DNA of 64,000 nt, from positions 11,005 to 75,004 of the forward strand of contig JBLNBA010000004.1 in NCBI GenBank assembly GCA_050259635.1, read 5' to 3'. Shown here piece by piece: positions 2,905-61,707 of this stretch. Within the stretch, counting starts at the first letter, position 1. Each line of letters starts with the position of its first letter. The notes beneath the pieces are model-generated. The model searched no databases and had not been told where the DNA came from. It saw only the letters and a program-made list of their open reading frames with translations. A program made the position numbers and the translations under genes. The DNA comes from Bacillota bacterium (GTDB taxonomy: Bacteria; Patescibacteriota; Patescibacteriia; Patescibacteriales; UBA12465).

Positions 2905-2907
2905 ACT

Positions 2908-3459
2908 ATGAAGCCAGATCTTATCCATTCTGGCGATATCGCCATCAGCTTGCGCCGCGTCCCTAGGGCGCGGCATTTGCGTTTAAGCGTCGACGGCAGC
3001 GGTTCCGTCTTGCTTACGCGGCCGCTTTGGGTTTCGCGGGAGTCTGCTCTGAGTTTCTTAAAAGAAAAGGAGGCTTGGTTAAGGGTCCGGATTGAGGAAA
3101 TCCGATCAAGACCAGCGTCGATCCTCCATTCCGGAGGCAGGGAGGAGTACCTTCGTTATAAGGAAAAGGCGAGGCTGATTGTGCGGTCCCGTCTCCAATT
3201 TTATAATTCCCATTATGGTTTTAATATTATCCGGATATCCATTCGCGATCAAAAGAGTCGCTGGGGAAGCTGTTCTCATGCTGGAGGCTTGAATTTCAAT
3301 TACCGGCTGGCATTGTTGCCCGCTGATTTGGCGGACTATATCATTGTCCACGAGCTTTGCCATTTAAAGGAAATGAATCACAGCCCGGCTTTCTGGCGCT
3401 TAGTGGGGGAAAAGATTCCTGATTATCAAGAAAAGCGTCGGCGGCTGAGGAAGATCTGA
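2908..3459 (+). CDS. YgjP/DUF45-type (M48-like) zinc metallohydrolase
   Basis: 183 aa with C-terminal HELCHLKEMNHSPAFW (HExxH plus downstream H), characteristic of the DUF45/YgjP family. Confidence 0.75.
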   Translation: MKPDLIHSGDIAISLRRVPRARHLRLSVDGSGSVLLTRPLWVSRESALSFLKEKEAWLRVRIEEIRSRPASILHSGGREEYLRYKEKARLIVRSRLQFYNSHYGFNIIRISIRDQKSRWGSCSHAGGLNFNYRLALLPADLADYIIVHELCHLKEMNHSPAFWRLVGEKIPDYQEKRRRLRKI

Positions 3460-3544: not shown

Positions 3545-5476
3545 ATGACTAAGAAAAAACGACGTATTATAACCTATTCGGCCATCGGTCTGGTAGCGGC
3601 TGTTCTGATCTGGTCTTTTACCAAGGGAGGTCCGAAACCGGTCTATTCTACGGTGACGGTATCGGCTGGCCCTCTTGAACAGACGGTTAGTGAAACTGGG
3701 ACGGTTAAGCCGGTGAAGGAAGTCGCCCTTAATTTCCTTACTTCGGGACGGCTTAAAGAAATCAAGGCTAAGGTCGGAGATAAGGTGACGGCCGGTACTG
3801 AGCTGGCTGCTTTGGATGATAGTGCCCTCTTATCTCGCCGGATGGAAGCGATGGCCGGGCTACGCATCGCAGAAGCGTCTCTTTCTAAAATATTAGCCGG
3901 AGCCAGTAATGAAAATGTGGCTATCGGACGTTCCGGCTTATCTCAGGCGCAGACTGCCGCGGCGTCGGCTAAAGTTGATTTAGAGAAGACTAAGACTAGC
4001 GTTGCTGAAAATATCCGCCAAGCGCAAAAAGGCTTGGCTGATCTTGAATCGACGGATCCCTCCACGCCAACTTCCGCAGAACAGGCAGTTTCTTCTGCCA
4101 GTACGGCGCTGGACAATGCAAAAAAGAACGGCGCTAAGAATATTGAGAATGCCCGTAGCAATGCTTATCTGGCCTTGAGCGACAAGATCCTAATCGCGAA
4201 GGTGGCCCTTGATAATATCAATACCATCCTTGAAGACGATGCGGCTGAAAATGTCCTGAGCGTGAAAAATTCTGTATATCTGACTCGGACCAAAGATACG
4301 CGTTCGGCAGCAATGGCGCTTGTTCCCGGGGCGGAAAAAGCCGTGGCCGATGCTAAGGCGACCGACGACCTATCGGTGATGGATAATGCTGGCGCCAAGG
4401 TGAAAGCCCTACTTCTGGCTACAGACACTTCTTTGGATAACGCCTATTCTATGCTAGAAGCGACTATCACCAGCGTAGATTTTCCTCAGACTCGTCTGGA
4501 TTCCTTCAAGTCTTTGGTCAGTGCCCAGTCTGCCCAGGTGAATGCCGCCAGCAGCGCAGCCGAAGCCGCGGTGCAGGGCTTGCGTAATTCAATTTTGAAT
4601 GAAGAAACCTCGGTATCGGGCGCGGAGGATAATCTCAGGCAGGCGCAGACTGCTTTGGATAATGCAATAATTTCCGCTCGCAACGCTTTGGCCAGTGCAA
4701 GGCTGGGAGGAGACCAACAGATCGCCGCTGCTCAAGCTCGACTCGATAGCGCCAATCAAGGGGTATCGCTGGCGCAGGCCCAGCTCAATAGCACCTTGGC
4801 TCCGGCTCGCGCCCAAGATGTTTCTCTTGCTCAAGCGCAGGTAACACAGGCTCAAGCCAGTTTGGCCGGTATTGACCAGCAATTGGCAGATAGCCGTTTG
4901 CTCGCGCCTCTAGATGGCGTCATTACCCAGGTTAATTATGAAATCGGCGAACAGTTCGGTCCCGGAGGAAAGCCGGCAGTTACCATCCTCGTTAATAATA
5001 GTTTTAATATCGAAGTAGATATCGCGGAATCGAACATTAGCAAGGTCAAGGTGGGTGACGAAGCCGCCATCACTTTTGATGCTTTTCCGGACGATTTCAT
5101 CCTCAAGGGAGTGGTGAGCTTTATCGAGCCGGCGCAAACTCTCATTCAGGACGTAGTGTATTATAAGGTGAAGATCGATTTCGCCGATTTGGCTGAGACG
5201 ATGGCAATGCTGGAAAGCCGCGCCTATGTCTTAAAGGCCGGTATGACCGCTAATGTTGTCATCACCACCGACCGTCGCCAGGAAGTCTTGCAAGTCCCCG
5301 CGAGAGCCATTACCGAGCGGGACGGCCAGCAGTATGTGCGTCTTCTTGCTAACGGCGAACCGCAGGAAGTCTCCGTTACTACCGGCTTGCGCGGCGACGA
5401 GGGGATGGTTGAAATCTTGAGCGGGCTCCAAGCTGGCAACGAGGTAATTACCTTCGTCCAGGACGGGAAGAAATAA
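3545..5476 (+). CDS. HlyD/MacA-family membrane-fusion (periplasmic adaptor) protein, unusually long (643 aa)
   Basis: N-terminal TM helix (IITYSAIGLVAAVLIWSF). Lipoyl-like halves VKAKVGDKVTAGTELAALD and LLAPLDGVITQVN. C-terminal beta-barrel/MP segments. About 360 aa of A/S/Q/L/N-rich helical sequence lies between the lipoyl halves. Confidence 0.85.
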   Translation: MTKKKRRIITYSAIGLVAAVLIWSFTKGGPKPVYSTVTVSAGPLEQTVSETGTVKPVKEVALNFLTSGRLKEIKAKVGDKVTAGTELAALDDSALLSRRMEAMAGLRIAEASLSKILAGASNENVAIGRSGLSQAQTAAASAKVDLEKTKTSVAENIRQAQKGLADLESTDPSTPTSAEQAVSSASTALDNAKKNGAKNIENARSNAYLALSDKILIAKVALDNINTILEDDAAENVLSVKNSVYLTRTKDTRSAAMALVPGAEKAVADAKATDDLSVMDNAGAKVKALLLATDTSLDNAYSMLEATITSVDFPQTRLDSFKSLVSAQSAQVNAASSAAEAAVQGLRNSILNEETSVSGAEDNLRQAQTALDNAIISARNALASARLGGDQQIAAAQARLDSANQGVSLAQAQLNSTLAPARAQDVSLAQAQVTQAQASLAGIDQQLADSRLLAPLDGVITQVNYEIGEQFGPGGKPAVTILVNNSFNIEVDIAESNISKVKVGDEAAITFDAFPDDFILKGVVSFIEPAQTLIQDVVYYKVKIDFADLAETMAMLESRAYVLKAGMTANVVITTDRRQEVLQVPARAITERDGQQYVRLLANGEPQEVSVTTGLRGDEGMVEILSGLQAGNEVITFVQDGKK

Positions 5477-5480
5477 TGAT

Positions 5481-6203
5481 ATGGAAAAGGGATTGATTTC
5501 GCTCAAAGGAATTTCCAAGACTTATCTTAGCGGTGATTTGGAAACGCCGGTTCTAAAAGATATAAACTTCACTGTCGATCAGGGTGAGTTCGTGGCCATC
5601 ATGGGCCCGTCGGGTTCGGGTAAATCCACCTTGATGCATATCCTAGGTCTTTTGGATCGGGCAACAACGGGTTCGTATTCGTTCGCGGGTAAAGAAGTCG
5701 GGGAACTGGATGACGAACAGCTCGCACATTTGCGGAATCAGGAAATCGGTTTCGTCTTTCAGGCCTTCAACCTTTTGGCGCGCACTAGCGTCATTGATAA
5801 TGTTAAACTTCCCCTGATCTATTCGAAAGATAAGCATCACATGGAAGAGAGAGCCAGCAAAGTTTTAGAAAGTGTAGGTTTGGGCCATCGCTTGTCATAT
5901 CATACTAATCAGATATCCGGCGGTGAAAAACAGCGGGTAGCCATCGCGCGTGCCTTGGTTAATGAGCCCTCCGTTATTTTTGCTGACGAACCTACCGGTA
6001 ATTTGGATTCCAAATCAGGCGTGCAGGTCATGCAAATATTGCAAGATCTGAATGACCAAGGCAAGACGATTATCCTGGTTACGCATGAGACCTACACGGC
6101 CGAGCATGCGAAGCGTATCATCCGGGTACATGATGGGCAGATTGTCGGTGATGACCGTGTGGGTAAGCGCCGCTTTGCCGTCGATGGTGAACTTTTGAAG
6201 TGA
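5481..6203 (+). CDS. ABC transporter ATP-binding protein (MacB/LolD-type)
   Basis: [10 protein letters not shown] (Walker A), [16 protein letters not shown] (signature), [11 protein letters not shown] (Walker B), VTHE (H-loop). Confidence 0.92.
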
Positions 6204-7456
6204 TATTTATGCTCGAGAACCTCAAACAATTGTTGCATCTCGCCCTCCGGGCTTTGCTTAGCAATAAGACCCGGAGTTTTTTAACGATGTTGGGGATAAT
6301 TATCGGCGTAGGAGCGGTCGTGTTGATCATGGCTCTTGGGTCGGGAGCGCAGTCTTTGATCTTGGGAGAACTGGAAGGATTCGGCAGTGATCTTATTGGC
6401 ATCCTGCCTGGGCAATCGGACGAGAAGGGACCGCCTGCTTCAGCCTTTGGAGTTAAGATCACTTCGCTTAAAGAGTCCGACGCCGAGGCCTTGAGTGATA
6501 CCAAGAATGTGCCTCACGCTAAATATGTCGCCGCCTATTATGATGCGAGCGTATCCTTGTCTTGGCGGGACCAGAGCCACGATACCAGCCTCCAGGGAGG
6601 TTCGGGGGATTATCTCGAGATTGATGGCGGTGAAATCGAGCGCGGACGCTTTTTCAGCAAAGAAGAAATGAATACTAATTTGCGCTTGGCTGTAATCGGC
6701 AAGACGGTGGCTGACGAGCTTTTTGGCAATACCGATCCTGTTGGCCAACGTTTCAAAATCAAGAATCAGATGGTTACGGTTATTGGCGTGATGAAAGAAC
6801 GGGGGCAGGTCGGTTTCCAGGACAGCGACGATCGGGTGATTACCCCTTTGCTCTTTGCTCAAAAAGAGATTGGCGGCGTGAATTATCTGAGCCAGATCGC
6901 CCTGAAAGTTGATGACCCAGCCAATATAGATGAGAGTATGGAGATGATCCGGCAGACCCTGCGCGACCGCCACGGGATCGATAGTCCTGAGGATGACGAT
7001 TTCTCAGTTCGGAGCTTCCGGGACGCCCTCGATCTGGTGACTAATATCACGGATGCTCTGCGGTATTTTTTGGCTGCCATGGCCGCTCTTTCGCTGTTAG
7101 TCGGAGGTATTGGAATTATGAATATCATGTTAGTGGGCGTAACGGAACGTACGCGTGAGATTGGATTAAGGAAGGCGATCGGGGCTACGAGCCGCCAGGT
7201 TCTTACCCAGTTTTTACTTGAGGCGGTAGTCTTAACGCTCTTTGGCGGTGTCGTGGGCTTAATCGGCGGCGCTGGCGTGGCCTATCTTGTTTCCATAATC
7301 GTAAATTCCCTTGGTTACCGCTGGGATTTTGTCATTTCGGTATTCTCTATACTTATCGCGGTGGGCTTGTCTACCTTGATCGGCGTCGTTTTCGGATATT
7401 ATCCGGCTTGGCGCGCTAGCCGTTTGAGCCCGATAGAAGCTTTGCGTTATGAATGA
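6200..7456 (+). CDS. ABC transporter permease, FtsX/MacB-type (TM1, large extracytoplasmic domain, 3 TM)
   Basis: 418 aa. N-terminal NKTRSFLTMLGIIIGVGAVV, about 220-aa soluble insert, C-terminal FtsX domain with ERTREIGLRKAIGA. Overlaps the ATPase stop by 4 nt. Confidence 0.88.
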   Translation: MIFMLENLKQLLHLALRALLSNKTRSFLTMLGIIIGVGAVVLIMALGSGAQSLILGELEGFGSDLIGILPGQSDEKGPPASAFGVKITSLKESDAEALSDTKNVPHAKYVAAYYDASVSLSWRDQSHDTSLQGGSGDYLEIDGGEIERGRFFSKEEMNTNLRLAVIGKTVADELFGNTDPVGQRFKIKNQMVTVIGVMKERGQVGFQDSDDRVITPLLFAQKEIGGVNYLSQIALKVDDPANIDESMEMIRQTLRDRHGIDSPEDDDFSVRSFRDALDLVTNITDALRYFLAAMAALSLLVGGIGIMNIMLVGVTERTREIGLRKAIGATSRQVLTQFLLEAVVLTLFGGVVGLIGGAGVAYLVSIIVNSLGYRWDFVISVFSILIAVGLSTLIGVVFGYYPAWRASRLSPIEALRYE

Positions 7457-8690
7457 TACTATTGAGCGGCTTAAAGTCGCCGGACAATTAGCTCTCCGTT
7501 CTCTCCGTTTGAACTTTGTCAGGACCAGTCTCACTGTTTTAGGTGTGGTGATTGGCGTTGCTGCAATTATTGTCGTTTTTGCCGCCGGAGATGGAATTAG
7601 CCGCCTTATTTCCGGAGAGCTTGAATCATATGGTACCAATGTCATTCAGACGGAGACAAAGGTCCCGGGGAAAGAGGCGATGTCTGCCGCCGAAATAACT
7701 ACGCTTAAATTATCCGATCTGGAGGCGATAAACCGCTTGGATAATATCGAAATGAGTTATGCGGCTTCCCTTGGCCAGCAGAAGGTTAGTTACGGAGCGG
7801 AGAGCAAAAAGATTTTTGTCTTTGGCGTCAGTGCTCCTTATGCGGAAATCGATGCGAAGACAAAGATAGCGGACGGAGAGTTCTTCACGGAAGAGCAGGA
7901 CCGGGGACAGGCGATGGTTGCCGTTTTGGGGGCTTCGCTCAAAGAATATCTTTTCGGAGACCAGGAAGCGGTGGGGCGTTCGATTAAGCTGGGTACGCAG
8001 AAGTTCCAAGTCATTGGCGTTTTAGAAGAGCAAGGCGGAGCCGCTAGTTTTTTGGATTTCGATAATCTTGTATACATTCCGATTAATACTTTGCATAAAA
8101 GGATTTTAGGCATCGATTATGCAATGTATTTCATGCACCAGTTAAAGGATGTCGAGCGCGCCAACGAGACTGTCGGCGAGATCCAGGCCCTCTTAAGGGA
8201 GCGGCATGAAATTAGCGATCCGGCCAAGGATGATTTCCGTGTCTCTACCATGGATGAGATGCTCAAAACTCTCGGCGTCGTGACCGGAGCCGTCACCTAC
8301 CTGCTATTAATGATCGTCCTGATATCCTTATTGGTCGGAGGGGTGGGAATCATGAATATCATGTATGTAACCGTGACTGAACGTACGCCGGAGATCGGTT
8401 TGCGTAAGGCCATGGGTGCAACCAGCCGGGACGTAACCTATCAGTTTTTAATTGAATCGTTGCTCATAACTTTTTGGGGGTGGTTCCTGGGGGCGGCAAT
8501 TGGCGTCGGGGCTGCTTATTTATTGAGTGCCGTGGCTCGCAACTTCGGGTTTAATTGGGAGATGTCTTTTCCCTGGAAGGGGGTTGGCGTTTCGCTGATG
8601 TTCTCTCTGCTCTGCGGCTTATTATTCGGATATCGTCCGGCTAAACAAGCATCTCGCTTGGACCCAGTCGAGGCCTTGAGAGTCGAATAA
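7449..8690 (+). CDS. second ABC transporter permease, FtsX/MacB-type (paralog of the preceding gene)
   Basis: 413 aa with the same topology. ERTPEIGLRKAMGA and a C-terminal PAKQASRLDPVEALR that mirrors PAWRASRLSPIEALR of the upstream paralog. 8-nt overlap with it. Confidence 0.88.
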   Translation: MNDTIERLKVAGQLALRSLRLNFVRTSLTVLGVVIGVAAIIVVFAAGDGISRLISGELESYGTNVIQTETKVPGKEAMSAAEITTLKLSDLEAINRLDNIEMSYAASLGQQKVSYGAESKKIFVFGVSAPYAEIDAKTKIADGEFFTEEQDRGQAMVAVLGASLKEYLFGDQEAVGRSIKLGTQKFQVIGVLEEQGGAASFLDFDNLVYIPINTLHKRILGIDYAMYFMHQLKDVERANETVGEIQALLRERHEISDPAKDDFRVSTMDEMLKTLGVVTGAVTYLLLMIVLISLLVGGVGIMNIMYVTVTERTPEIGLRKAMGATSRDVTYQFLIESLLITFWGWFLGAAIGVGAAYLLSAVARNFGFNWEMSFPWKGVGVSLMFSLLCGLLFGYRPAKQASRLDPVEALRVE

Positions 8691-23219: not shown

Positions 23220-25046
23220 ATGGAAAAGAAAGATAAACTAGCTATCGGCCTGGAACTGCTGTCCCCGGCGAAAAATTTCGCTTCCGGCAAGCTCGCTTTG
23301 GATAACGGAGCAGATGCCGTCTATATGGGGGCGCCGAAATTTGGAGCGCGCCAGGCCGTCGGTAACTCTTGGGAGGATATCAAGCGCCTGGCGGACTATG
23401 CGCATTTTTTTGGTGCCCGTGTCTATGTAGCCTTGAATACGATATTCTTCGAGGAAGAAATGGCGGCTATGCAGTCGGCTTTGGCTGAAGCCGGTAATGC
23501 CGGGATTGACGCTCTTATTATCCAGGATCCGGGGATCTTCGAGTTAAAGCTGCCTGCCATTCCGATTTTCTTGAGCACCCAGGCTAATAATATCGAGGCG
23601 GACCATATCTCCTTTTGGGAGGGTCTTGGCTGCAGCCGCGTGATCTTGGGAAGGGAATTATCCTTGGCCGAGATAAAGGGTATTAAGAATAAGACTAGTA
23701 TAAACTTAGAGTCTTTTGTCCATGGATCCTTATGCGCAAGCTATAGCGGTCGCTGTTATATCAGCCAGGCGATGTGCGGCCGAAGCGCTAATCGCGGCGC
23801 CTGCATCCAGGCCTGTCGCATGCAATATTCCTTGGAGGACGGGCAGGGGAGGGAGATAGGGAAGGAGAAGGCTTGGCTTTGCCTCAAGGATCTCAATCTA
23901 TCGAAAAGATTGGGGGAATTGGCTGCGGCAGGGATCACTTCTTTCAAGATTGAGGGGAGACTGAAAGATGAAGCCTACGCCGCTAATACCGCAGCCTCTT
24001 ACCGGGAAGAATTGGATAAGCTCATCTCGTGCTCAAATGGAAAATACCGTCGCGTTTCATACGGAAGAATCACGAGAAGTTTCATGCCTAACCTGGAAAA
24101 AAGTTTTAATCGCGGATTTACAGAATATAATCTGGACGCTCGGCCACGAGACTGGCTGGCCGTCTCGCCAGCGTCAAGAGGCGAGTATATAGGGAAGGTG
24201 GAAGGGGGTAATTCCAGGGCTTGGAAAATATCTGAATCTACTTCACTTAAGCCAGGGGATGGCTTGGTCTTCTTTCGGGACGGAGAGATGCTTGGCGGGG
24301 CGTTTGTAAATAGAGCGGACCGCTCGAGTGTCGCTTTTAATAAGGAGGTGGAATTGGAGCCTGGTGATATTGTGTGCCGGAACGAAGACCCTGCATACGA
24401 TCGGGCAGCCTCTTCTGAGGCCCAAAGGGAATTAGCCCTAGCTTTGGAATTATCTTTTTCTGGGGCAGGGCTTCATATCCAAGCTGATTGCGAAAATGGC
24501 TGTAATTTTTCCTGGGACTTGGAAATAGAGGGTGAGGTTCCAAAGGACCCGATAAAGGCGGCGGATAATGTTACTAAACAATTTCAGAAAACTGGTGGCA
24601 CCGGCTTTTATATATCATCCTTAGAGATAAATGGAGAGGTACCTTTTTTGCCGCTTTCGAAATTGAATGATCTGCGCCGGCAATTATTGGATAAAGCGCG
24701 CGTTGAAGTGGTAGCGGCCTATAAGGGCTTGCCGATGAAGTCGATTTCAAACGGAAGCCAGCCCTATCCGGAAAAGACGGTCGGCTTTGAACATAATGTC
24801 GCTAACCCATCCACCCGAGCTTTCTATGAGCGTCATGGCTGCCAAGTAGAAGAAATGGCGATGGAAGCGGACCATATAACCGAGGGCCGTCCCTTGATGG
24901 TTTTGAAACACTGCTTAAGGAGGGAAACCGGGCACTGCCTCAAAGATGGAGGATCCGCATCTCCCTTATATCTTGTTCGGGAAGGGAGACGCTATAGGCT
25001 GGAATTCGATTGCCTCCATTGCCAGATGAAGGTTTTTCTGGATTAG
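23220..25046 (+). CDS. U32-family protein (peptidase U32 / O2-independent RNA- or quinone-hydroxylase family) with C-terminal extension
   Basis: 608 aa. N-terminal TIM-like U32 core and the Cys cluster SLCASYSGRCYISQAMCGRSANRGACIQACR, typical of Fe-S-binding U32 proteins. Confidence 0.8.
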   Translation: MEKKDKLAIGLELLSPAKNFASGKLALDNGADAVYMGAPKFGARQAVGNSWEDIKRLADYAHFFGARVYVALNTIFFEEEMAAMQSALAEAGNAGIDALIIQDPGIFELKLPAIPIFLSTQANNIEADHISFWEGLGCSRVILGRELSLAEIKGIKNKTSINLESFVHGSLCASYSGRCYISQAMCGRSANRGACIQACRMQYSLEDGQGREIGKEKAWLCLKDLNLSKRLGELAAAGITSFKIEGRLKDEAYAANTAASYREELDKLISCSNGKYRRVSYGRITRSFMPNLEKSFNRGFTEYNLDARPRDWLAVSPASRGEYIGKVEGGNSRAWKISESTSLKPGDGLVFFRDGEMLGGAFVNRADRSSVAFNKEVELEPGDIVCRNEDPAYDRAASSEAQRELALALELSFSGAGLHIQADCENGCNFSWDLEIEGEVPKDPIKAADNVTKQFQKTGGTGFYISSLEINGEVPFLPLSKLNDLRRQLLDKARVEVVAAYKGLPMKSISNGSQPYPEKTVGFEHNVANPSTRAFYERHGCQVEEMAMEADHITEGRPLMVLKHCLRRETGHCLKDGGSASPLYLVREGRRYRLEFDCLHCQMKVFLD

Positions 25047-25096
25047 TTACGACCTTCCTGCTGCTTCGTTGTATTAGATATAATACGATAATTCAT

Positions 25097-25735
25097 ATGA
25101 AAAAACTCTTCGCTTTGTTCGTCCTAATTTTTCTTTCCGGCCTGGCCGGCAATGCCTCGGCGGGTGAAAGGGTGTGTAATCTCATGTACGCTCCGGTCTG
25201 CGGAGCGGATGGGGTAACTTATGGGAACCGCTGCCAGGCGGGCGAGGTGGTTGTGGCCCATGAAGGCGAATGCGAGGTTTTTAAGCAGTCTCTGGATTGC
25301 GATATTCGCTGCTTGAGGTATGATCCAGTTTGCGGAGACGATGGCCGGACCTTTGCTTGCGGACAGGCTGAGGCGGATTGCAAGGGGGTGATAGTGGTGA
25401 GGGAGGGCGAATGCGGAAAGGCAGTTGATAAAAAGAAGATGCTATCTTGCGGATTTACGGATAATGTCAAGCAGCATCGTTGTTTGATGCTGAAAGAGAA
25501 ACAGCTGTTCGAAAACTATCTACGGGTAGAAATTTCTTCCTTATCTCCAAGGAAACCGGTTTTGGGAGGGAAGTTCCAGGTAACCAAAATATCCTGGAAA
25601 GCTGATCGCCGAGCAATCGTGGAATTTGAGGACGGCCATATATCCCTTCAAGCGGAGACGCAAATAAGGCCGATTCGTAAAGGCAAGGATGTGGTTGGCG
25701 GGCAAGCTAGATATTTTAAGCTGAATGTAAAATAA
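25097..25735 (+). CDS. secreted protein with two Kazal-like domains plus an uncharacterised C-terminal domain
   Basis: Signal peptide MKKLFALFVLIFLSGLAGNASA. Domain 1 is CNLMYAPVCGADGVTYGNRCQAGEVVVAHEGEC (nt 25175-25273). Domain 2 is CDIRCLRYDPVCGDDGRTFACGQAEADCKGVIVVREGEC (nt 25298-25414). The PVCGxDGxTY core is the Kazal signature. The ORF track starts at 25010, inside the U32 gene; I use ATG 25097. Confidence 0.75.
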   Translation: MKKLFALFVLIFLSGLAGNASAGERVCNLMYAPVCGADGVTYGNRCQAGEVVVAHEGECEVFKQSLDCDIRCLRYDPVCGDDGRTFACGQAEADCKGVIVVREGECGKAVDKKKMLSCGFTDNVKQHRCLMLKEKQLFENYLRVEISSLSPRKPVLGGKFQVTKISWKADRRAIVEFEDGHISLQAETQIRPIRKGKDVVGGQARYFKLNVK

Positions 25736-30427: not shown

Positions 30428-30859
30428 ATGTTTATCGGCGAATACAATCATAATCTTGATGACAAAGGTCGGGTAGCTATCCCGGCTAAATTTCGTGCGG
30501 TGTTAAAGAAGGGAGCAGTTGTAACCAAAGGATTGGACAACTGCTTATTTTTATACGGAAAAGAACAATTTGAAAAGATCGCTCAGAAGTTTGCTGCTTT
30601 GCCAATCAGCCAAGCCAAGGCACGTGCCTTTTCTCGGCATATGCTTGCCGGAGCCATGGATGTTGATTTTGATAACCAGGGCCGTGTTACCTTGCCTGAC
30701 TACCTGCGTAAATTTTCCGGCTTAAAGAAGGGGGTCATTATCGCTGGCTTGTACAATCATCTCGAAATCTGGGATGAAGAAGCTTGGAATAGCTATAAGC
30801 AGGCGGCTGAGCAAAATAGCAATAGTATCGCCGAAGAGATGGGCGATCTCGGAATTTAA
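30428..30859 (+). CDS. mraZ: division/cell wall cluster transcriptional regulator MraZ
   Basis: Duplicated SpoVT-AbrB modules with DDKGRVAIPAKFR and DNQGRVTLPDYLR. Confidence 0.92.
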   Translation: MFIGEYNHNLDDKGRVAIPAKFRAVLKKGAVVTKGLDNCLFLYGKEQFEKIAQKFAALPISQAKARAFSRHMLAGAMDVDFDNQGRVTLPDYLRKFSGLKKGVIIAGLYNHLEIWDEEAWNSYKQAAEQNSNSIAEEMGDLGI

Positions 30860-30860
30860 T

Positions 30861-31796
30861 ATGCCTTATGAGCATATTCCGGTAATGATTCAGGAAGTGT
30901 TGGCAGCCCTGGGACTGAAGAAGGGCGGAACGTATATCGATTGCACGCTTGGCGGCGCCGGATACACGAGAAGGATTTCCCTGGCGGCTGGTAATTCAGG
31001 GAAGGTACTATCCATTGACGCCGACGAACTCGCCCTTGCCAATGCCACGGAAATAATCAAACGAGATAGTTTAGATAATATAGTTCTTGTACACGACAAT
31101 TTCCGCAATTTATCGAAAATTTCCGCTGAGTATCTGCCTCAAGGGGCTGATGGCATCGTGTTTGACCTGGGGCTATCGTCTGCTCAATTAGAAGATGAAA
31201 GCCGAGGTTTCTCCTTTCAGGGCGACCGGCCATTAGACATGGCTTTTGGAGAAGGAGAGGCAAGGACGACCGCAAGTATCCTGAGTTTTTCATCGCTATC
31301 GGAACTAACCAGAATATTCAGAGAATATGGCGAAGAACCGAAAGCTTATCAGCTAGCTAAAGCGATAATTGCCGCTCGCCGCGAAAAGCCCTTCCGCAGC
31401 ACGAAGGATCTGGTCGATGTCGTCGAGAAGACGATTAAGCGCCGGCCTGGAGGAATACACCCGGCCACGAAGGCTTTCCAAGCTTTACGGATGGCCACGA
31501 ACGATGAATTCCAAGCACTGGAAGAAGCTTTGGCGGCCGTTCCTCTCATCTTGAAAAAAGGCGGAAGAGTCGCCATCGTTTCTTTTCATAGCGGTGAAGA
31601 CCGGATTGTGAAGCAATGGCTTAAGCGAGAGAGCACCGGATGCATCTGTCCGCCGCAAGCGCCAGTATGTGTCTGCGGGCATGAGGCTATTATGAAGCCG
31701 CTCACAAAGAAACCGCTTATTCCGAGCGAGGAGGAGATTGCGGACAATTCTCGAGCTAGAAGTGCCAAGCTTCGAGCGGCGGAAAAAATTGGATAA
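30861..31796 (+). CDS. rsmH: 16S rRNA (cytosine1402-N4)-methyltransferase RsmH
   Basis: HIPVMIQEVL, DCTLGGAGYT, FDLGLSSAQLE, SFHSGEDRIVK. Start ATG 30861 is 2 nt after the mraZ stop (ORF track 30774 overlaps mraZ). Confidence 0.92.
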   Translation: MPYEHIPVMIQEVLAALGLKKGGTYIDCTLGGAGYTRRISLAAGNSGKVLSIDADELALANATEIIKRDSLDNIVLVHDNFRNLSKISAEYLPQGADGIVFDLGLSSAQLEDESRGFSFQGDRPLDMAFGEGEARTTASILSFSSLSELTRIFREYGEEPKAYQLAKAIIAARREKPFRSTKDLVDVVEKTIKRRPGGIHPATKAFQALRMATNDEFQALEEALAAVPLILKKGGRVAIVSFHSGEDRIVKQWLKRESTGCICPPQAPVCVCGHEAIMKPLTKKPLIPSEEEIADNSRARSAKLRAAEKIG

Positions 31797-44900: not shown

Positions 44901-46889
44901 ATGCGGCGCCGGTTAAATATGCCTGAAACTAAAACCAGAACAAGTAAGAAGAAGGCCGGTGTTTCGACCGCGCCTTTCCTGGAGCGCCCTTTACCGGACC
45001 CTTCCGAGGTATCGCTTTTTGAAGAAGCGGTCAATAAGGAAGCACGTGAAGGGGAAGTCGATGCTAATCTTTCACTTATCTACAATGACGGGGAGGGAAA
45101 TATTGCGGATGTTAGCAAGGTAAAACGGCGTCGCCGTTTGAAAATCGTCGTGCTTTTCAAGCAGTTAATCGTCCTCACTATCTTGGCTTGCGGTTTTTAT
45201 GGCGCCTATTATTACTATTTCCAGCGCTCTGCTGGCGATGATCTGATCGGGGTGGCGGTTGTCGCCCCGGAAAAGGCTTTGGCCGGGGGAGATATCGAAT
45301 ACCGCCTGGATTATCGGAATAGCAGCGGTATGGCGCTCTCCGATGTCCGGATAGAGGCTGTCTTGCCGCCTTCATTCGTGTTGTTGTCGAGTGACCGTGA
45401 ACCGAGCGGGGTAAACTCTTGGCAGATAGGGAGATTGGAGGCTGGCTCAGCCGGCTCAATCACAATAACAGGGCAGTTGTTCGGCTCCCAAGACTCTCCT
45501 AATATAGTAACAGCACGGATTTCTTATGTGCCGGAAAATTTTTCCAGCGCTTTCAAGAAAGAGGCCTCGGCCAACACGGTAATTTCCCGTCTAGGATTCG
45601 ATGTCTTAGCCGAATACCAAAATCGTGCTTTAGTGGGCGAGGATAACAATATTGGCCTCAGGCTTAATGCGTTTCGAGAAAATCGGATAAGCGATTTTTA
45701 TCTGGAAGTTGATTCGTCGGATAATCTGGTTGTCGCCAGTATTAAAAAAGCCGGTGAAACCCCTGGTGGGGATGCCGGCGTTAAGGTCGAAGAGGCAGGC
45801 GAGGGCCGATGGTTGGTGAGCGGGTTACCGACTGATTCTGAGGACGAGACTGATGTTACCATTATTTTTCGCATAAAAGAAAAACAGGCGGATAAAGAGG
45901 AACTGAAAATTCGTTTTGTGAAGAAAGAAGCTGATGGTAGTGAGCGGTCATTTTGGGAAAAAAGCCTTTCGCTGGAAGTGTTGAAGAGCGATCTCAATCT
46001 TTCGCTATCCGTTAACGGCGATAAGACGGATAAACCGGCAGATTTCGGCACTCCCTTGGAGTACGAACTGTCTTATTCTAACAACGGCGAGTCCGCGCTT
46101 TCCGATTTGGTACTGATGGCGGTGATAAAAGGGGAATCAATCGATTGGGCGAGTTTCAAAAGCGAAAAGGGCGGGACAAGAGCTAAGGATGCGATCGTTT
46201 GGACTAAAGAAGAGATCCCGGCTTTAGCGGAAGTAGCGCCGGGTGATTCCGGGAAAATTGCTTTCACCCTTAAGCTCGTTCCTTTTTCTGTTTCTGATAT
46301 GGGACGGGATCAGTCGGTCACGAGCTATGCGCAATATGGCCTAGATTCCTCACATAGCGCGGAAAGTGATAATCGCAGCAATACGATCGTGACACGCTTG
46401 AACTCGGACTTCCTCTTTTCTGAAAAAATATTGTATTTCGATGAGGATAACATTCCCGTCGGCACTGGACCCTTGCCGCCCAAGGTGGGTGAGAAGACTA
46501 CTCTTCACGTTTTTTGGACGATTAAGAATAATCTTCATGACCTTAAGGAGACGGCCGCGACGATGGTTCTTCCCGCTGGCATTGACTGGGCGGGAGCCGG
46601 TAATGCTAATGCCGGTTCCGTGACTTATGATGATGCCACCAGGACCGTTAAGTGGCAGCTTGGTTATCTGCCGCTTAGCGTCTATCGGGCGGATGCCGAA
46701 TTCCAGATCAGCCTTACTCCTAATCAAGCTGATGCAAATAAGATCTTAGTAATTTCCGGCGGCAGCCAGGCAGGGGCCGTAGATGCCGATACCTCCTCTT
46801 CTCTCATCCGGAAGTTGAACCCTAAAACGACTAAGCTCGAGGATGATGAAATTGCCGGTTTGTCTAATAACGGCCGCGTGTCTGAATAA
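44901..46889 (+). CDS. membrane-anchored surface protein with DUF11/CARDB-like Ig-fold repeats
   Basis: 662 aa. Cytoplasmic basic N-terminus and one TM (LIVLTILACGFYGAYYYYF). Repeated beta-rich modules: IEYRLDYRNSSGMALSDVRIEAVLP and LEYELSYSNNGESALSDLVLMAVI. The start could be ATG 44919. Confidence 0.55.
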   Translation: MRRRLNMPETKTRTSKKKAGVSTAPFLERPLPDPSEVSLFEEAVNKEAREGEVDANLSLIYNDGEGNIADVSKVKRRRRLKIVVLFKQLIVLTILACGFYGAYYYYFQRSAGDDLIGVAVVAPEKALAGGDIEYRLDYRNSSGMALSDVRIEAVLPPSFVLLSSDREPSGVNSWQIGRLEAGSAGSITITGQLFGSQDSPNIVTARISYVPENFSSAFKKEASANTVISRLGFDVLAEYQNRALVGEDNNIGLRLNAFRENRISDFYLEVDSSDNLVVASIKKAGETPGGDAGVKVEEAGEGRWLVSGLPTDSEDETDVTIIFRIKEKQADKEELKIRFVKKEADGSERSFWEKSLSLEVLKSDLNLSLSVNGDKTDKPADFGTPLEYELSYSNNGESALSDLVLMAVIKGESIDWASFKSEKGGTRAKDAIVWTKEEIPALAEVAPGDSGKIAFTLKLVPFSVSDMGRDQSVTSYAQYGLDSSHSAESDNRSNTIVTRLNSDFLFSEKILYFDEDNIPVGTGPLPPKVGEKTTLHVFWTIKNNLHDLKETAATMVLPAGIDWAGAGNANAGSVTYDDATRTVKWQLGYLPLSVYRADAEFQISLTPNQADANKILVISGGSQAGAVDADTSSSLIRKLNPKTTKLEDDEIAGLSNNGRVSE

Positions 46890-46892
46890 TTT

Positions 46893-48047
46893 ATGCCTAG
46901 ATCAAACTGGAATAAGAACTCTCTCCTCCGGAAAGGGCTAGTGAACACTTCGCATGGAAAGATCGTTACGCCTTTTTTCATGCCCGACGCCACTCGGGCA
47001 TTCGTGAAGGGTAATACGAGCGATGACGCTAAGCGTGCCGGTACGGAAGCGATGGTTATTAATACCTTCCATTTGTATTTGCAGCCAGGTTCAGATCTGG
47101 TACGCCGGGCCGGCGGCACGCATCTCTTTATGGATTGGGACCGCCCTTTGCTTTCTGATTCCGGCGGTTTCCAGGTTTTTTCTCTCATCCATCGTTCACA
47201 GGGGATGGGGAAGATCGATGATGAGAAGGTTAGTTTCCGATCTCCCCTTGACGGTTCAAAGCACGAGCTTACGCCTGAGCGTTCCATCCAGATCCAGTTT
47301 GAATTGGGTGCGGATATGATCGTCTGCCTGGATGATTGCCCTCCTAATGATTGGCCGCGAGAAAAGCTGGTAAAATCGGTGGAGCGGAGTATCGCCTGGG
47401 CGAAGAGATGCAAGCAAGAATATCTTCGGCAAGTTTCGCGGCGCAAGCTCAACGAGCAGACCCGCCCTCTGCTTTTCGCGGTTGTGCAAGGAGGCGACTT
47501 TGAAGATCTAAGGAAGCATTGCGCTGACGAACTAGTCGCTGTCGGTTTTGACGGATATGGGTTCGGCGCTCGGCCGGTCGACAAGGACGGGAAATTCCTT
47601 GCCAAAACATTGTTCAAGACCGCTTCTTTTCTGCCTAATGATTCTCTCCGCTTTGCCCTCGGGATCGGAACGCCGGAAGATATATATCGTTGTTATCTTA
47701 TGGGCTGGGATATGTTTGATTGCGTAATCCCTACTCGAGAGGGGAGGCATGGTCGCCTTTTTTCTTTCAAGAAGGGTTTCAAGGGATTTAAGGAACCCAA
47801 GAAGATAAAGGGGCCGGTCAGCAAGTTTCCGTCATTTTATGAGACGGTAAATATCGCGAATGCTCGTTTTGCAAGAGATTTTTCGCCAATCAACCCGGAA
47901 TCGAAGATCAAGGAACTAAGAACCTATTCCCGCGCTTATCTCCATCATCTTTTCCGCTTAAACGAACCTTTAGGCCTAAAATTAGCCAGTCTCAATAATC
48001 TTGAGTTTTATAACAAACTTATGGCGGGGTTGCGTCATATTGGCTAA
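46893..48047 (+). CDS. tgt: tRNA-guanine transglycosylase homolog lacking the zinc site
   Basis: TPFFMPDAT, NTFHLYLQPG, DSGGFQVFSL, LDDCPP, GIGTPED, DMFDCVIPTREGRHG, SRAYLHHLF all align to bacterial Tgt. The CxCxxC...H zinc ligands and the GGLAVGE pocket are not conserved (see findings). Confidence 0.85.
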   Translation: MPRSNWNKNSLLRKGLVNTSHGKIVTPFFMPDATRAFVKGNTSDDAKRAGTEAMVINTFHLYLQPGSDLVRRAGGTHLFMDWDRPLLSDSGGFQVFSLIHRSQGMGKIDDEKVSFRSPLDGSKHELTPERSIQIQFELGADMIVCLDDCPPNDWPREKLVKSVERSIAWAKRCKQEYLRQVSRRKLNEQTRPLLFAVVQGGDFEDLRKHCADELVAVGFDGYGFGARPVDKDGKFLAKTLFKTASFLPNDSLRFALGIGTPEDIYRCYLMGWDMFDCVIPTREGRHGRLFSFKKGFKGFKEPKKIKGPVSKFPSFYETVNIANARFARDFSPINPESKIKELRTYSRAYLHHLFRLNEPLGLKLASLNNLEFYNKLMAGLRHIG

Positions 48048-48160: not shown

Positions 48161-49192
48161 ATGACAACTAAGATAATCGCCACCATCGGTCCGAAAAGCG
48201 AGACCCCGGAAATGCTGGAAGCCTTATTTCAGGCGGGAGTAGATATCGTGAGGATAAATTTTTCTCATGCTACCTATGATCAATACAAGCGTATTAAGCA
48301 AACTATCGATAGCTATAACTTGAAGTCGGGTAAGAAGATTGCCTTGATGCTCGATCTTCAAGGGCCCAGGATTCGTGTAGGGCAGATGCCGGAAGAAGGG
48401 ATCATGATGAAGGAAGGTGAAACGTATAATTTTTCTTTTCTCGGCAAGCCATACAAGAAGAAAGGCGACATTATACCGATAGATAGCGAGGATTTATACA
48501 AGGATATGAAAAAGGGGGAATGCCTTTTCCTTTGTAACGGCGCAATCGAACTGAAAGTCACGGGCGTCAAAGGAAAGACGATCAGCGCTAAGGTCTTAAA
48601 TGGCGGAGTCTTGAGCTCAAGGAAGGGAATTAACGTTCCTGATACGAATATCAAAAAAGGCGGCATGACTGCCAAGGACGTCAAGGATGCAAAATTCGGA
48701 GTAAAAGCAGGGATGGACTACATTGCCTTGTCTTTCGTCCAAACCGAAGAAGATGTGAAGCGCTTAAGGACTTTGCTGGGCAAAGGCAGTAAGGTTAAGG
48801 TTATTTCCAAGATCGAACGTGGAATCGCCTTGAAAAATATTGATCGCATCATTTCCGCTTCGGATGCCATTATGGTTGCCCGAGGAGATCTGGGCATAGA
48901 AGTGCCGATTGAGGATCTGCCGATCATCCAGAAAAATTTAGTCCGCCATGCCCATTGGCACGACCGTCCTGCGATAATCGCCACACAGGTTATGACCTCG
49001 ATGATCAAGAATCCGCATCCTACTCGGGCAGAAATCTCAGATATTGCCAACGCTGTATTCGATGGAGCGGATATGGTGATGCTTTCGGACGAGACGACGG
49101 TCGGAGCCTATCCCTTGGAAGCGGTGAGTTTGCTTAAGAAGGTGATCGAACGCACCGAGCGTAATATTTACAAAGGGAATATCAATAACTAA
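48161..49192 (+). CDS. pyk: pyruvate kinase, short form lacking the C-terminal (allosteric) domain
   Basis: TKIIATIGP, RINFSHA, MVARGDLGIEVP, ATQVMTSM, MLSDETTVGAYP. 343 aa, ending right after the A-domain. Confidence 0.88.
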   Translation: MTTKIIATIGPKSETPEMLEALFQAGVDIVRINFSHATYDQYKRIKQTIDSYNLKSGKKIALMLDLQGPRIRVGQMPEEGIMMKEGETYNFSFLGKPYKKKGDIIPIDSEDLYKDMKKGECLFLCNGAIELKVTGVKGKTISAKVLNGGVLSSRKGINVPDTNIKKGGMTAKDVKDAKFGVKAGMDYIALSFVQTEEDVKRLRTLLGKGSKVKVISKIERGIALKNIDRIISASDAIMVARGDLGIEVPIEDLPIIQKNLVRHAHWHDRPAIIATQVMTSMIKNPHPTRAEISDIANAVFDGADMVMLSDETTVGAYPLEAVSLLKKVIERTERNIYKGNINN

Positions 49193-51634: not shown

Positions 51635-52633
51635 ATGGATATTTCTAGATTATCTTCAATATTACAGGGCGAAGCACGCTATCGTTTTAAACAAGCATAT
51701 ACGGCGCTTTATCGCGATCTCATTTCCAGCTGGTCTGAGGTCAGTGTCCTGCCTATTGCTCTGCGAGAACGCTTGGATGAAGAGTGCCCCCTTCTGATTG
51801 AGAGTTCTCTTTCTGGCGGAAAAAAGACTCAGAAGGCGCTGATTACATTTTCGGATGGGGCAGCGGTTGAAACCGTCCTTATCCGCCACCGAGACGGGAG
51901 AAATACGGTTTGTTTATCATCCCAGGCTGGCTGTCCGCTGAATTGCGCTTTCTGCGCCACGGGCGCTAACGGATTCTTGCGCAATTTAAGTTCCGGAGAG
52001 ATCGTGGAGCAGTTCTTCTTTTGGGCTCGCCATTTGAAAACTGAAGGAGGGAAGATAGATAATGTCGTGTTTATGGGCATGGGCGAGCCCTTCTTGAACT
52101 ATGACCAGTTTATCAAAGCGGCCAAGGATTTGAATGACCCCGAGAAATTCAGTTTTGCCTCCCGGCGCCTTTCTGTGTCTACCGCCGGCATTATCGAAGG
52201 GATAAGGAAGCTTTCGCGCGAGAAGATGCAAATGAATCTTGCTATTTCGCTCCACGCCGCTAATGATTCTCTGCGCCAGCAACTGATGCCTATAGCTCAG
52301 CGTTATCCCTTGGACTCTTTAATGAGGGCGGTGGATGAATATATCCGTCTCACCAGCCGCCGAGTCATGTTCGAGTACCTTATGCTTAAGAATATCAATG
52401 ATAGCGAGGATGACGCCCAAGAGCTAGCTCTCTTGATGAAAAAGCCGCTCCACCTCGTCAACCTCATTCCCTATAATCCGACCGGTCGGTTCCAGCCCTC
52501 AAGTCCTCAGCGGATAAAGGCCTTTAAGGAAAAATTAGAATCAGCGGGCATCGCCGTCACTTCGCGCCACAGCCTCGGGAATGAAATCGAAGGAGCTTGC
52601 GGCCAGCTCGCTGGAAAAAAACGAAGCAAGTAA
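51635..52633 (+). CDS. rlmN: 23S rRNA/tRNA adenine-C2 methyltransferase RlmN (radical SAM)
   Basis: CPLNCAFCATG radical-SAM cluster, GMGEPFLNY, C-terminal catalytic Cys (GACGQL). Confidence 0.9.
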   Translation: MDISRLSSILQGEARYRFKQAYTALYRDLISSWSEVSVLPIALRERLDEECPLLIESSLSGGKKTQKALITFSDGAAVETVLIRHRDGRNTVCLSSQAGCPLNCAFCATGANGFLRNLSSGEIVEQFFFWARHLKTEGGKIDNVVFMGMGEPFLNYDQFIKAAKDLNDPEKFSFASRRLSVSTAGIIEGIRKLSREKMQMNLAISLHAANDSLRQQLMPIAQRYPLDSLMRAVDEYIRLTSRRVMFEYLMLKNINDSEDDAQELALLMKKPLHLVNLIPYNPTGRFQPSSPQRIKAFKEKLESAGIAVTSRHSLGNEIEGACGQLAGKKRSK

Positions 52634-60240: not shown

Positions 60241-61707
60241 ATGCAGATTCCCGGATTCATAACGGATATTTTGTCGCGCCTGCAAGCCGCCGGTTACACC
60301 TCAGAACTGGTCGGTGGCTGCGTTCGCGATCTTTTAATGGGCAAGGAACCAAAGGATTGGGATCTGGCCTGTTCGGCGCGTCCTGAAGAAATTTTACAGG
60401 TTTTCCCGGAAGGGAAGTACGAGAATGACTTTGGAACGGTTATCATCCCGTGTCGCAATGAAAAACATGAGCTTTTAGCAGCCGTAGAGGTGACGACATA
60501 CCGCAGCGAGAAGGGATATTCGGATGCCCGGCATCCGGATGAGGTCCGGTTTGAGAAAGATCTGGAAAAAGATTTAGAAAGACGGGATTTTACCGTTAAT
60601 GCCATGGCTTTCCGTTTGGTTCCTGAGGGGCAATATGTGTTTGGCGACCAGGCTTTTTCGCTCGTGGATCTGTTCGGGGGGCTTAAAGATATCAGGAAAA
60701 AGGTTATCAGAGCAGTAGGTGAACCGGCCGATCGTTTCAAGGAAGACGCCTTGAGGATGATGAGGGCGATAAGGTTTTGCGCCCAATTGGGTTTTGAGCT
60801 AGAACCCAAGACGCAGCGAGCTATAGTCAAGCTAGCTGGCAGTCTTAAGTTCGTGGCGAAGGAAAGGATCCGCGACGAGTTCGTTAAGATCCTTTCGGCG
60901 GAAAAACCTGACGAAGGGATCTTAGCACTCCATGAAGCAAAGCTTTTGCAGTACATCATGCCGGAATTGGAACAAGGAGTCGGAGTGCGCCAGAATCACC
61001 ACCATATATATCCGGTCTTTAAGCACAATATTCTTTCACTGAGACATTGCCCGAGCCAGGAATGGCAGGTTCGCTTGGCTGCGCTCCTGCATGACGTAGG
61101 CAAGCCGAAAGCGCGTAAGCTTATTAGCGGCAAAGTGACTTTCTATAACCACGAATATATCGGGGCTAAGATGACGGACAAGATCATGTTCCGCTTGCGC
61201 TTCAAGACCGAGGATAGGGAACGGGTGGTTAACCTTGTGCGCAATCACATGTTCTATTATAATGTGGGCGAGGTGACAGCCGCCTCTGTCCGCCGCTTGA
61301 TCAGCAAAGTGGGTCGGGAGAATCTAAAAGATCTCATCGAGCTGCGTGTCGCGGATCGTTTAGGCTCCGGCACGCCCAAGGCGATGCCGTATAAGCTCAG
61401 ACACCTCCAATACATGATGGAAAAGGTCCAGCATGATCCGGTCTCGGTGAAAATGCTGGCTATAAACGGCCATGATCTCATGGATAATGTCGGTTTGGCG
61501 CCCAGTCCTAAAATCGGGGCCATCCTTGACGTGCTTCTGGGCGAAGTACTGGAAGACCCCGAGAGAAATAATAAAGATTATCTCTTGAGCCGTTCCCAGT
61601 CTTTGAAAGATTGTGACCTTGAAGACTTACGCGCCCAGGCAAGGCGGTCTATCGAAGAGAAAAGGGAGGAAGAGGACCAGGACATACAAAAAAAATTCAA
61701 GGTATAA
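60241..61707 (+). CDS. cca: CCA tRNA nucleotidyltransferase (class II, with HD domain)
   Basis: LVGGCVRDLLMGKEPKDWDL, RDFTVNAM, LLHDVGKP (HD). The two tRNA genes in the window lack an encoded CCA. Confidence 0.85.
   Translation: MQIPGFITDILSRLQAAGYTSELVGGCVRDLLMGKEPKDWDLACSARPEEILQVFPEGKYENDFGTVIIPCRNEKHELLAAVEVTTYRSEKGYSDARHPDEVRFEKDLEKDLERRDFTVNAMAFRLVPEGQYVFGDQAFSLVDLFGGLKDIRKKVIRAVGEPADRFKEDALRMMRAIRFCAQLGFELEPKTQRAIVKLAGSLKFVAKERIRDEFVKILSAEKPDEGILALHEAKLLQYIMPELEQGVGVRQNHHHIYPVFKHNILSLRHCPSQEWQVRLAALLHDVGKPKARKLISGKVTFYNHEYIGAKMTDKIMFRLRFKTEDRERVVNLVRNHMFYYNVGEVTAASVRRLISKVGRENLKDLIELRVADRLGSGTPKAMPYKLRHLQYMMEKVQHDPVSVKMLAINGHDLMDNVGLAPSPKIGAILDVLLGEVLEDPERNNKDYLLSRSQSLKDCDLEDLRAQARRSIEEKREEEDQDIQKKFKV

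Follow-up and report, generated by a model that had tools for sequence, protein, structure and literature searches.

A tRNA-guanine transglycosylase homologue of Patescibacteria with lost zinc ligands and a remodelled base pocket

Here we report on a homologue of bacterial tRNA-guanine transglycosylase (Tgt), 384 residues long, encoded in positions 11,005 to 75,004 of contig JBLNBA010000004.1 (GenBank assembly GCA_050259635.1); this whole stretch of 64 kb is called the window, and context searches of the genome in question were confined to it. The protein, referred to as the query, is probably a working orthologue, in Patescibacteria, of bacterial tRNA-guanine(34) transglycosylase, zinc-free and with a remodelled pocket, which would insert the queuosine precursor 7-aminomethyl-7-deazaguanine (preQ1).

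Gene identity and catalytic residues

The gene and its relevant segments are listed below. All motifs were placed by alignment, the insertion being the unaligned part, and motif coordinates were checked by translating the open reading frame (ORF).

46893..48047, plus strand: tgt homologue of 'type D' (pocket of the Arg type, zinc-free), 384 aa, from ATG to stop
47157..47177, plus strand: DSGGFQV motif; D89 corresponds to D102 of Zymomonas mobilis Tgt, the general acid/base
47328..47345, plus strand: LDDCPP motif; D147 corresponds to D156, the base-binding Asp, and C149 to C158
47565..47585, plus strand: remodelled pocket loop GARPVDK, in place of GGLAVGE (Z. mobilis 229-235)
47652..47660, plus strand: F-A-L, in place of Y258-L-M260, the base-stacking wall of the pocket
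47709..47723, plus strand: DMFDC motif; D276 corresponds to D280, the catalytic nucleophile
47766..47837, plus strand: basic insertion (FKKGFKGFKEPKKIKGPVSKFPS), located after the barrel and ahead of the C-terminal subdomain, query residues 292-318
47901..47996, plus strand: former zinc site (S337, I339, L342, N368), together with dimer-interface residues

The query matches the Pfam TGT domain (PF01702) over residues 13-382 with E = 3e-104, and passes the cutoff of the NCBIfam Tgt equivalog model TIGR00430, scoring 342.1 bits against 306.75. Its phmmer alignment to Z. mobilis Tgt is unambiguous (E = 4e-79) and is the source of the residue correspondences used throughout, positions in the family being numbered as in the Z. 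mobilis enzyme.

A preliminary description of the gene had listed the catalytic aspartates of DSGGFQV, LDDCPP and DMFDC as retained, and the phmmer alignment bears this out, placing them at D89, D147 and D276; Q203 is also kept, as query residue Q199. A homologue search over 5.8 billion proteins returned thousands of relatives, and conservation was counted in the best 120 (62-100% identity), which come from metagenome-assembled genomes (MAGs) of Patescibacteria, many labelled Falkowbacteria. D102, D156, D280 and Q203 are invariant among these 120 homologues, as are D, S, G, G and Q of the DSGGFQV motif. Mean column identity is 72% in a family alignment of 30 sequences.

An AlphaFold2 model, built from the latter alignment, reaches a mean predicted local distance difference test score (pLDDT) of 87.4 and a predicted template modelling score (pTM) of 0.88. 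When the model was compared with the PDB by Foldseek, only bacterial Tgt structures were found at the top, with a TM-score of 0.84 and 37-38% identity to Z. mobilis Tgt. Hot-spot residues of the bacterial Tgt homodimer, one of which, K52, additionally packs on U35 of the tRNA, have been described (bioRxiv 10.1101/2020.09.01.277731). In the family, K52 is found in all 120 homologues, F92 in 117, H333 in 119 and E339 in 112, while position 330 is occupied by Tyr in 76 and by Phe in 44. R286 and R289, which we take to be contacts of the anticodon loop, are invariant (120/120).

Loss of the zinc site

According to the preliminary description, all four zinc ligands are lost, and alignment to Z. mobilis Tgt confirms it: C318, C320, C323 and H349 are replaced by S337, I339, L342 and N368, respectively. 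C318S and C323L are found in 120/120 homologues, position 320 is hydrophobic (I, L, F or M) in 117/120, and H349N occurs in 103/120, the remaining 17 having His. The dimer-interface residues Y349 (Y330), H352 (H333) and E358 (E339) lie inside the same segment. The idea that the cysteines are merely displaced was rejected: Cys is absent from the query beyond residue 277, so the loss of zinc ligands stands, and none is found in the whole C-terminal part of 108 of the 120 family members. Being conserved among the 120 homologues, the changes in the query are due neither to chance nor to sequencing error, and the joint conservation of altered and catalytic residues indicates purifying selection on the changed form.

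As to what takes the place of the zinc subdomain, its fold is predicted confidently in the absence of the ligands, with pLDDT above 90 throughout and Ser, Ile, Leu and Asn as the substitutes. Conserved replacement residues at the four ligand positions point to a stable alternative packing rather than to decay; the model suggests that zinc has been replaced by hydrophobic and side-chain packing, the same subdomain fold being kept, and the enzyme would hold no metal at this site. Zinc-ligand loss also occurs, sporadically, in canonical Tgts outside the candidate phyla radiation (CPR).

A Lys-rich insertion of about 20 residues had been reported ahead of the former zinc subdomain. It is indeed present, in the form of 23 extra Lys-rich residues (about 292-315) following the last barrel strand and preceding the C-terminal subdomain, and is modelled as an ordered loop (pLDDT 82-93). 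It is, however, neither constant nor specific to zinc loss: the segment measures 15-44 residues in the family (K+R 23%), versus 10 in Z. mobilis, and insertions are likewise present in CPR Tgts with a zinc site.

The base pocket

The replacement of the GGLAVGE loop, also part of the preliminary description, was found again by alignment. The query loop runs from G225 to K231 (G-A-R-P-V-D-K) and is, in the MAFFT alignment, one residue shorter, with D230 at or adjoining the position of E235. The new loop is conserved across the 120 homologues: G230A, A232P and G234D are found in every one of them and L231R in 117, G-A-R-P-[VI]-D being fixed in the family. Y258F and M260L are equally universal (120/120). 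Related loops, G[GA]RH[IV]D and GGWP[LI]D, characterize sister clades.

In canonical Tgt, the Leu231/Ala232 peptide reportedly flips under the control of E235, according to structural work by Klebe and Reuter, its NH facing guanine N7 or the nitrile of 7-cyano-7-deazaguanine (preQ0) and its C=O facing the aminomethyl group of preQ1. Pro232 has no backbone NH, and only the carbonyl of residue 231 could face the pocket, which would correspond to the preQ1-accepting conformation; D230 of the shortened loop may well take the role of E235. Such a carbonyl 'lock' would not be general to the clade formed by the query's type and the G[GA]RH[IV]D type (type C, see below), since the latter carries His, not Pro, at position 232.

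If the query acts as we propose, it would work as a homodimer that replaces G34 with preQ1 in tRNAs with GUN anticodons (Asp, Asn, His, Tyr), following the covalent mechanism usual for Tgt, with D276 (D280) as the nucleophile and D89 (D102) as the acid/base, while D147 (D156) and Q199 (Q203) would read the Watson-Crick edge of the base.

Queuosine genes

QueA turns preQ1-tRNA into epoxyqueuosine-tRNA, and QueH reduces the latter to queuosine (Q). In three lineages, a Tgt of the query's type, defined by GARPVD in the loop, F and L at 258 and 260, and S-[IL]-L-N at the former zinc site, lies behind queA, with or without queH:

L015 (Falkowbacteria RIFOXYC2_FULL_47_12): QueA 417..1445, QueH 1449..2012, Tgt 2032..3192
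L091 and the near-identical L170: QueA, QueH, a 23S-rRNA-intervening-sequence-protein gene, Tgt; the L091 Tgt is 59% identical to the query
L171 (GCA_030698385.1): QueA 847..1905, Tgt 1917..3083, the Tgt reading GARPVDG/FL/SILN

In L015, QueA scores 358 bits, versus an NCBIfam equivalog cutoff of 324, and QueH 216 bits in Pfam. Since QueA needs preQ1-tRNA, the Tgt beside queA in these relatives must supply preQ1 at position 34, and the occurrence of queA-tgt operons of the same type makes preQ1, as judged from gene context, most likely the base of the query enzyme as well. Protein searches find QueA to be widespread in Patescibacteria.

Two peculiarities of these loci may be recorded. The intervening-sequence-protein gene (PF05635) between queH and tgt lies at 4787..5173 in L091 and at 7758..8144 in L170, and in L170 the tgt gene is broken into two ORFs, which reflects either a genuine disruption or a frameshift introduced in assembly.

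In the query's genome, the stated absence of queC, queD, queE and queF from the window agrees with our searches, none of the four having turned up in the scanned parts of the 64 kb. A Pfam scan of 20 further window genes detected no QueT, QPTR or other que gene, and some 20 larger genes within 1..38 kb, as well as one at 60241..61707, were searched only with local QueA, QueH, RsmI, RsmH and Rmt-like profiles. An Rfam scan of the window found no preQ1 riboswitch, and just two tRNAs, Leu-CAG and Val-CAC; similarly, no GUN-anticodon tRNAs were found nearby in a tRNA scan of 19 type D loci. The proposal that the protein serves in salvage is made plausible by the lack of any biosynthesis gene, Q-precursor transporter or preQ1 riboswitch in the scanned parts of the window, and, this being a CPR organism, preQ1 is probably salvaged.

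Tgt types in the CPR

Key positions were tabulated for 150 representatives, obtained when 1.84 billion cluster representatives were searched exhaustively with HMMER, and for 80 loci from GTDB species genomes, the scan of which employed clade-specific patterns. Loci in fetched genomes extended up to 10 kb either side, and their ORFs were called within this analysis. Four types could be distinguished among CPR Tgts:

Type A: canonical pocket, zinc site CCCH; Saccharibacteria, Portnoybacteria, Doudnabacteria
Type B: canonical pocket (GGLAVGE/GGLSVGE), zinc lost, usually S-[FLI]-L-[NH]; Kuenen-, Buchanan- and Jacksonbacteria, one Falkowbacteria genome
Type C: pocket G[GA]RH[IV]D, zinc site CCCH; Moranbacteria
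Type D: pocket GARP[VI]D, zinc lost; the query's type

Loss of zinc and change of the pocket had been presented as a single syndrome, a view that does not hold, because the two are separable and freely combined among CPR Tgts, as types B and C demonstrate. Zinc-free Tgt is widespread in Patescibacteria, well beyond the query's family, and is found with a canonical pocket at loci L036, L037, L039, L040, L042-L044, L046, L047, L051, L054, L056, L066, L068 and L070. The existence of zinc-free subdomains in these canonical-pocket enzymes means that zinc loss alone does not imply a new function.

The relationships among the types were analyzed by neighbor-joining (NJ) bootstrap, with 200 replicates of one alignment from which positions 258/260 and the columns of pocket loop and zinc ligands had been left out. 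Types C and D, together termed R-type, group in 98% of replicates, and a W-type clade, outside the CPR, whose loop is GGWP[LI]D and whose zinc site is intact, in 99.5%; R and W group together in 100%, and R, W and CPR types A/B in 72%. Substitutions near the active site common to R and W are V45D, L68V, T115G, A227G, G234D and Q237G.

Different parts of the protein have different nearest relatives. Over the barrel (252 columns), type D is nearest type C in 200/200 bootstraps; over the 59 columns of the C-terminal subdomain that remain without those of the ligands, it is nearest type B in 189/200, while type C is nearest the zinc-containing type A in 184/200. This mosaic was compared over 47901..48047 of the window, type B loci L036-L070 and type C loci L022-L033. 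Gene order agrees with the C-terminal signal: type D and the B-type loci L037, L040 and L044 feature glycosyltransferase, DUF4012, DUF11-like and tgt genes in this order, while type C features IleRS, RecO, DUF11-like and tgt, an order common to A- and B-type loci. We tentatively favour the hypothesis that barrel or subdomain was exchanged between CPR lineages, rather than convergence after zinc loss, as the event that would have produced these patterns.

The gene directly upstream of the query is of special relevance:

44901..46889, plus strand: DUF11-like gene (Pfam DUF11), 662 aa, ending 3 nt before tgt

In 36 CPR loci, which between them represent all four Tgt types, a gene of the corresponding DUF11-like cluster, c0, precedes tgt, immediately in 33 of them and with one gene in between in the other three. 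The query gene thus sits in the orthologous slot of the ordinary CPR Tgt and is not an extra paralogue. In Falkowbacteria, Moranbacteria and further classes of the CPR (e.g. L006, 8088..9998), the DUF11-like protein preceding tgt measures about 640-660 aa.

Alternative functions

A number of observations weigh against an ordinary preQ1-inserting Tgt. The margin of the query over the TIGR00430 cutoff is small, canonical-pocket CPR Tgts reaching about 466 bits; a W-type sister, at 299.7 bits, falls below the cutoff. Genes of the que set occur within 10 kb in only 1 of 16 GTDB-genome loci of type D (L015), and the queA-linked operons belong to a subset of lineages, with 59-62% identity to the query, as measured for L015 and L091. 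Neither QueA, QueH, QueT nor a preQ1 riboswitch was found in the scanned 64-kb window. Furthermore, the loop, positions 258/260 and the near-active-site V45D, L68V, T115G, A227G and Q237G are systematically altered, and the altered pocket-side positions are common to the GGWPxD clade, whose context is one of rRNA methyltransferases, not of queA. A functional shift at the base of the joint Arg-type and GGWPxD clade is possible.

The alternative that survives best, although we consider it unlikely, is a G34 transglycosylase with a shifted base preference, using salvaged queuine, preQ0 or another 7-deazaguanine, above all in lineages with tgt but without queA and queH, perhaps including that of the query. 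Throughout the family, the loop that discriminates the 7-substituent has a different sequence, accompanied by Y258F, M260L and further changes on the pocket side, and specificity shifts driven by this loop are documented elsewhere, in the queuine-salvaging Tgts with GG[LS][AS]G (PMC11570991). Moreover, the scanned window yielded no que gene, most type D loci have none within 10 kb, and one sister-clade locus pairs Tgt with the precursor transporter QueT. Against this stand the operons that join type D Tgt to QueA, and in part also to QueH, in three lineages, QueA needing the aminomethyl group of preQ1, the commonness of QueA in Patescibacteria, and a GARPVD loop unlike the known queuine-type motif. 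The suggestion of the preliminary description that the protein might accept a different base thus keeps some, though low, probability, given a truly remodelled and conserved pocket, especially for genomes that may carry tgt alone, while the type D-queA operons point to preQ1.

Quite unlikely, in our judgement, is the broader reading in which Arg-type and GGWPxD Tgts form a distinct, unrecognised TGT subfamily with an active site rebuilt for another task, working here on a base other than preQ1 or on an additional RNA that is not position 34 of tRNA. The operons that the W clade forms with RsmH, RsmI and Rmt-like genes hint, for such a target, at helix 44 of 16S rRNA.

We attach a still lower probability, so that it may be called highly improbable, to a transglycosylase acting on another RNA, e.g. 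ribosomal RNA, by kinship with the W clade. Such kinship is apparent in the grouping of R and W at 100% NJ bootstrap without pocket and zinc columns and in their common signature substitutions, and W-type genes adjoin, or are fused with, Rmt/FmrO-like, RsmI and RsmH genes. No Rmt-like or RsmI gene lies beside the query or any R-type gene, however, and the RsmH gene of the window is 15 kb off, in a dcw cluster; the positional orthology with canonical CPR Tgt, the queA/queH operons of relatives and the conservation of the U35-contact residue K52, as well as of R286 and R289, also speak against it, and even for the W clade a role on rRNA is guessed only from gene context. The claim that a different nucleic acid is the substrate is consequently not supported, in view of the canonical CPR slot, the retained K52 and dimer residues, the queA operons, the lack of a DpdA match and an ArcTGT score far below cutoff.

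It is hardly credible that the query is a catalytically dead or accessory subunit, comparable to eukaryotic QTRT2, or a gene decaying after loss of the zinc site. All four zinc ligands are gone, and mutation of such ligands is reported (Chong et al. 1995; Garcia et al. 1996) to abolish the activity of E. coli Tgt. Yet the three catalytic Asp and Q203 are invariant in 120 homologues and mean column identity is 72%, signs of strong purifying selection, the ORF is intact, the C-terminal subdomain is modelled with confidence, and the replacement residues are conserved; unlike a QTRT2-like subunit, the query keeps the catalytic nucleophile, and its similarity to QTRT1 (E = 4e-60) is stronger than to QTRT2 (E = 5e-14).

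Finally, membership in the TGT superfamily and a pocket unlike the preQ1 type could suggest a DpdA-like DNA-guanine transglycosylase or a TGT of the archaeosine type (position 15), but the probability of either is practically negligible: no NCBIfam DpdA hit was obtained at E <= 0.01, the ArcTGT model (TIGR00432) gives 71.5 bits where 350 are required, neither dpdB/dpdC-like, restriction nor phage genes surround the query, whose neighbours are housekeeping genes, the best structural matches are all bacterial Tgt, and the protein ends at the barrel-associated subdomain, at residue 384, without the C-terminal PUA-type domains (C2/PUA) of ArcTGT. Model scores, genomic context and the catalytic residues still present accordingly led us to reject readings as DpdA, ArcTGT or QTRT2-like protein.

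The W-type clade

W-type Tgts (GGWP[LI]D, zinc site intact) were found in Clostridia/Eubacteriales, Anaerolineae and Latescibacterota MAGs. They lie in tight operons with methyltransferases of 16S rRNA helix 44, namely RsmH (m4C1402), RsmI (Cm1402) and an Rmt/FmrO-like protein. The latter, a homologue of G1405-N7 methyltransferases scoring 247.7 bits against a cutoff of 250, is encoded by a gene adjacent or fused to tgt in 12 of 14 W-type loci. Selected arrangements are:

L074, 4377..8055: rsmH 4377..5342, tgt-like 5388..6449, rmt-like 6451..7191, rsmI 7192..8055
L005, 9280..11887: TGT-FmrO fusion
L008, 633..3552: RsmI-TGT fusion
L009, 7490..9528: QueT transporter gene directly upstream of a W-type tgt
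Further W-type loci: L060 (1599..5806), L069, L075, L073, L035, L053, L064 and L061

These associations hint, at the level of gene order, at an as yet uncharacterised role of such TGTs in connection with the decoding centre.

Gene neighbourhood

In the window, genes are ordered as GT4 glycosyltransferase, DUF4012, DUF11-like, tgt, pyruvate kinase, enolase, phosphoesterase and RlmN. The neighbourhood of tgt is syntenic in close relatives and made up of housekeeping genes; as a clue to function, the immediate gene context was discarded as uninformative. A scan for promoters and terminators around tgt found nothing above shuffled expectation.

The radical-SAM gene at 51635..52633 (plus strand) was considered as a QueE candidate and rejected, since it is RlmN; it lies four genes downstream of tgt and is not adjacent to it. 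RsmH, at 30774..31796 (plus strand), heads the dcw-like cluster, 15 kb from tgt. Pyruvate kinase (48161..49192, plus strand) is only 343 aa long, its Pfam match being to the PK barrel alone (residues 2-322), and the same 343-aa form without the C-terminal domain is conserved in relatives L001 and L003. A 241-aa ORF at 25010..25735 (plus strand) contains Kazal-type serine protease inhibitor domains (Kazal_1, E = 2e-9), which is unusual for a bacterium.

A protein identical to the query, encoded on a contig of 352 kb, is labelled 'Bacillota bacterium' in NCBI. Close relatives, DUF4012, the barrel-only pyruvate kinase and synteny point instead to Patescibacteria, of a Falkowbacteria-like kind, and the NCBI label is probably wrong for the source of the query. 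Similarly, several Third Party Annotation (TPA) MAGs with a type D gene are labelled 'uncultured Gammaproteobacteria'.

Comparison with known systems

The Zn(Cys3His) site is, to our knowledge, regarded as a hallmark common to the whole TGT superfamily, including bacterial Tgt, QTRT1/2, ArcTGT and DpdA. Lacking two hallmarks of Tgt, this site and the GGLAVGE/E235 pocket, the query is best filed as a divergent variant rather than an ordinary member. In the literature searched, with subscription journals outside its scope, we found neither a zinc-free Tgt nor the Arg-type/CPR pocket nor the W-type cluster described, and the zinc-free, pocket-remodelled form is apparently undescribed so far; CPR proteins of type D are currently annotated as plain Tgt.

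With bacterial Tgt (EC 2.4.2.29; Z. mobilis, E. coli; TIGR00430, PF01702) the query shares 37-38% identity over the full length, the same fold, D102/D156/D280, Q203, C158 and the dimer hot-spots, and some type D relatives have queA/queH beside them. In contrast, it lacks Zn(Cys3His), its GARPVD is one residue shorter and leaves no E235 peptide-switch arrangement, it carries Y258F, M260L, V45D and L68V, and the basic segment measures 15-44 residues in the family instead of 10. If preQ1 is the base, the family would represent a natural alternative for reading its 7-substituent, by an Arg-Pro loop without the E235 switch, which may help in understanding and engineering the specificity of TGT, in designing inhibitors and in predicting the queuosine status of CPR genomes.

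The canonical-pocket Tgts of Patescibacteria (e.g. L039, L054, L055) resemble the query in occupying the slot behind the DUF11-like gene and in having a similar insertion, and the zinc-free ones among them also in the C-terminal S-x-[FLI]-x2-L ... N, followed by 'LNNLEFY'. They differ in retaining GGLAVGE/GGLSVGE, Y258 and M260, as well as in their score of about 466 bits to TIGR00430. The query barrel, on the other hand, is nearest the G[GA]RH[IV]D type of Moranbacteria, which keeps the zinc site; such a mosaic of barrel and subdomain suggests exchange at the level of domains among CPR lineages.

Queuine-salvaging Tgts of the Chlamydia trachomatis type feature a GG[LS][AS]G loop and occur in genomes without queA/queG/queH, as stated in the report describing them (PMC11570991). 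The likeness lies in a diverged 7-substituent loop within a bacterial Tgt of salvage-dependent organisms; they keep the zinc site, however, and the type D loop is unrelated to theirs, some of its members being operonic with queA/queH. In the two supplementary files of the survey of tgt-only taxa in the same report, no Patescibacteria, Falkowbacteria or Moranbacteria are named.

Bacterial precedents for queuosine-pathway steps that do not strictly depend on zinc are QueD2 and FolE1B/FolE2, zinc-sparing paralogues of the queuosine/folate pathway (PMC11672702). These are separate paralogues, often Zur-regulated, in which the metal is catalytic, whereas here a structural zinc is lost in an apparent orthologue. 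Should our interpretation be true, a whole bacterial radiation would run Tgt without the zinc site, the metal being dispensable for the fold, and Tgt would join the zinc-sparing steps of the queuosine pathway beside QueD2 and FolE1B.

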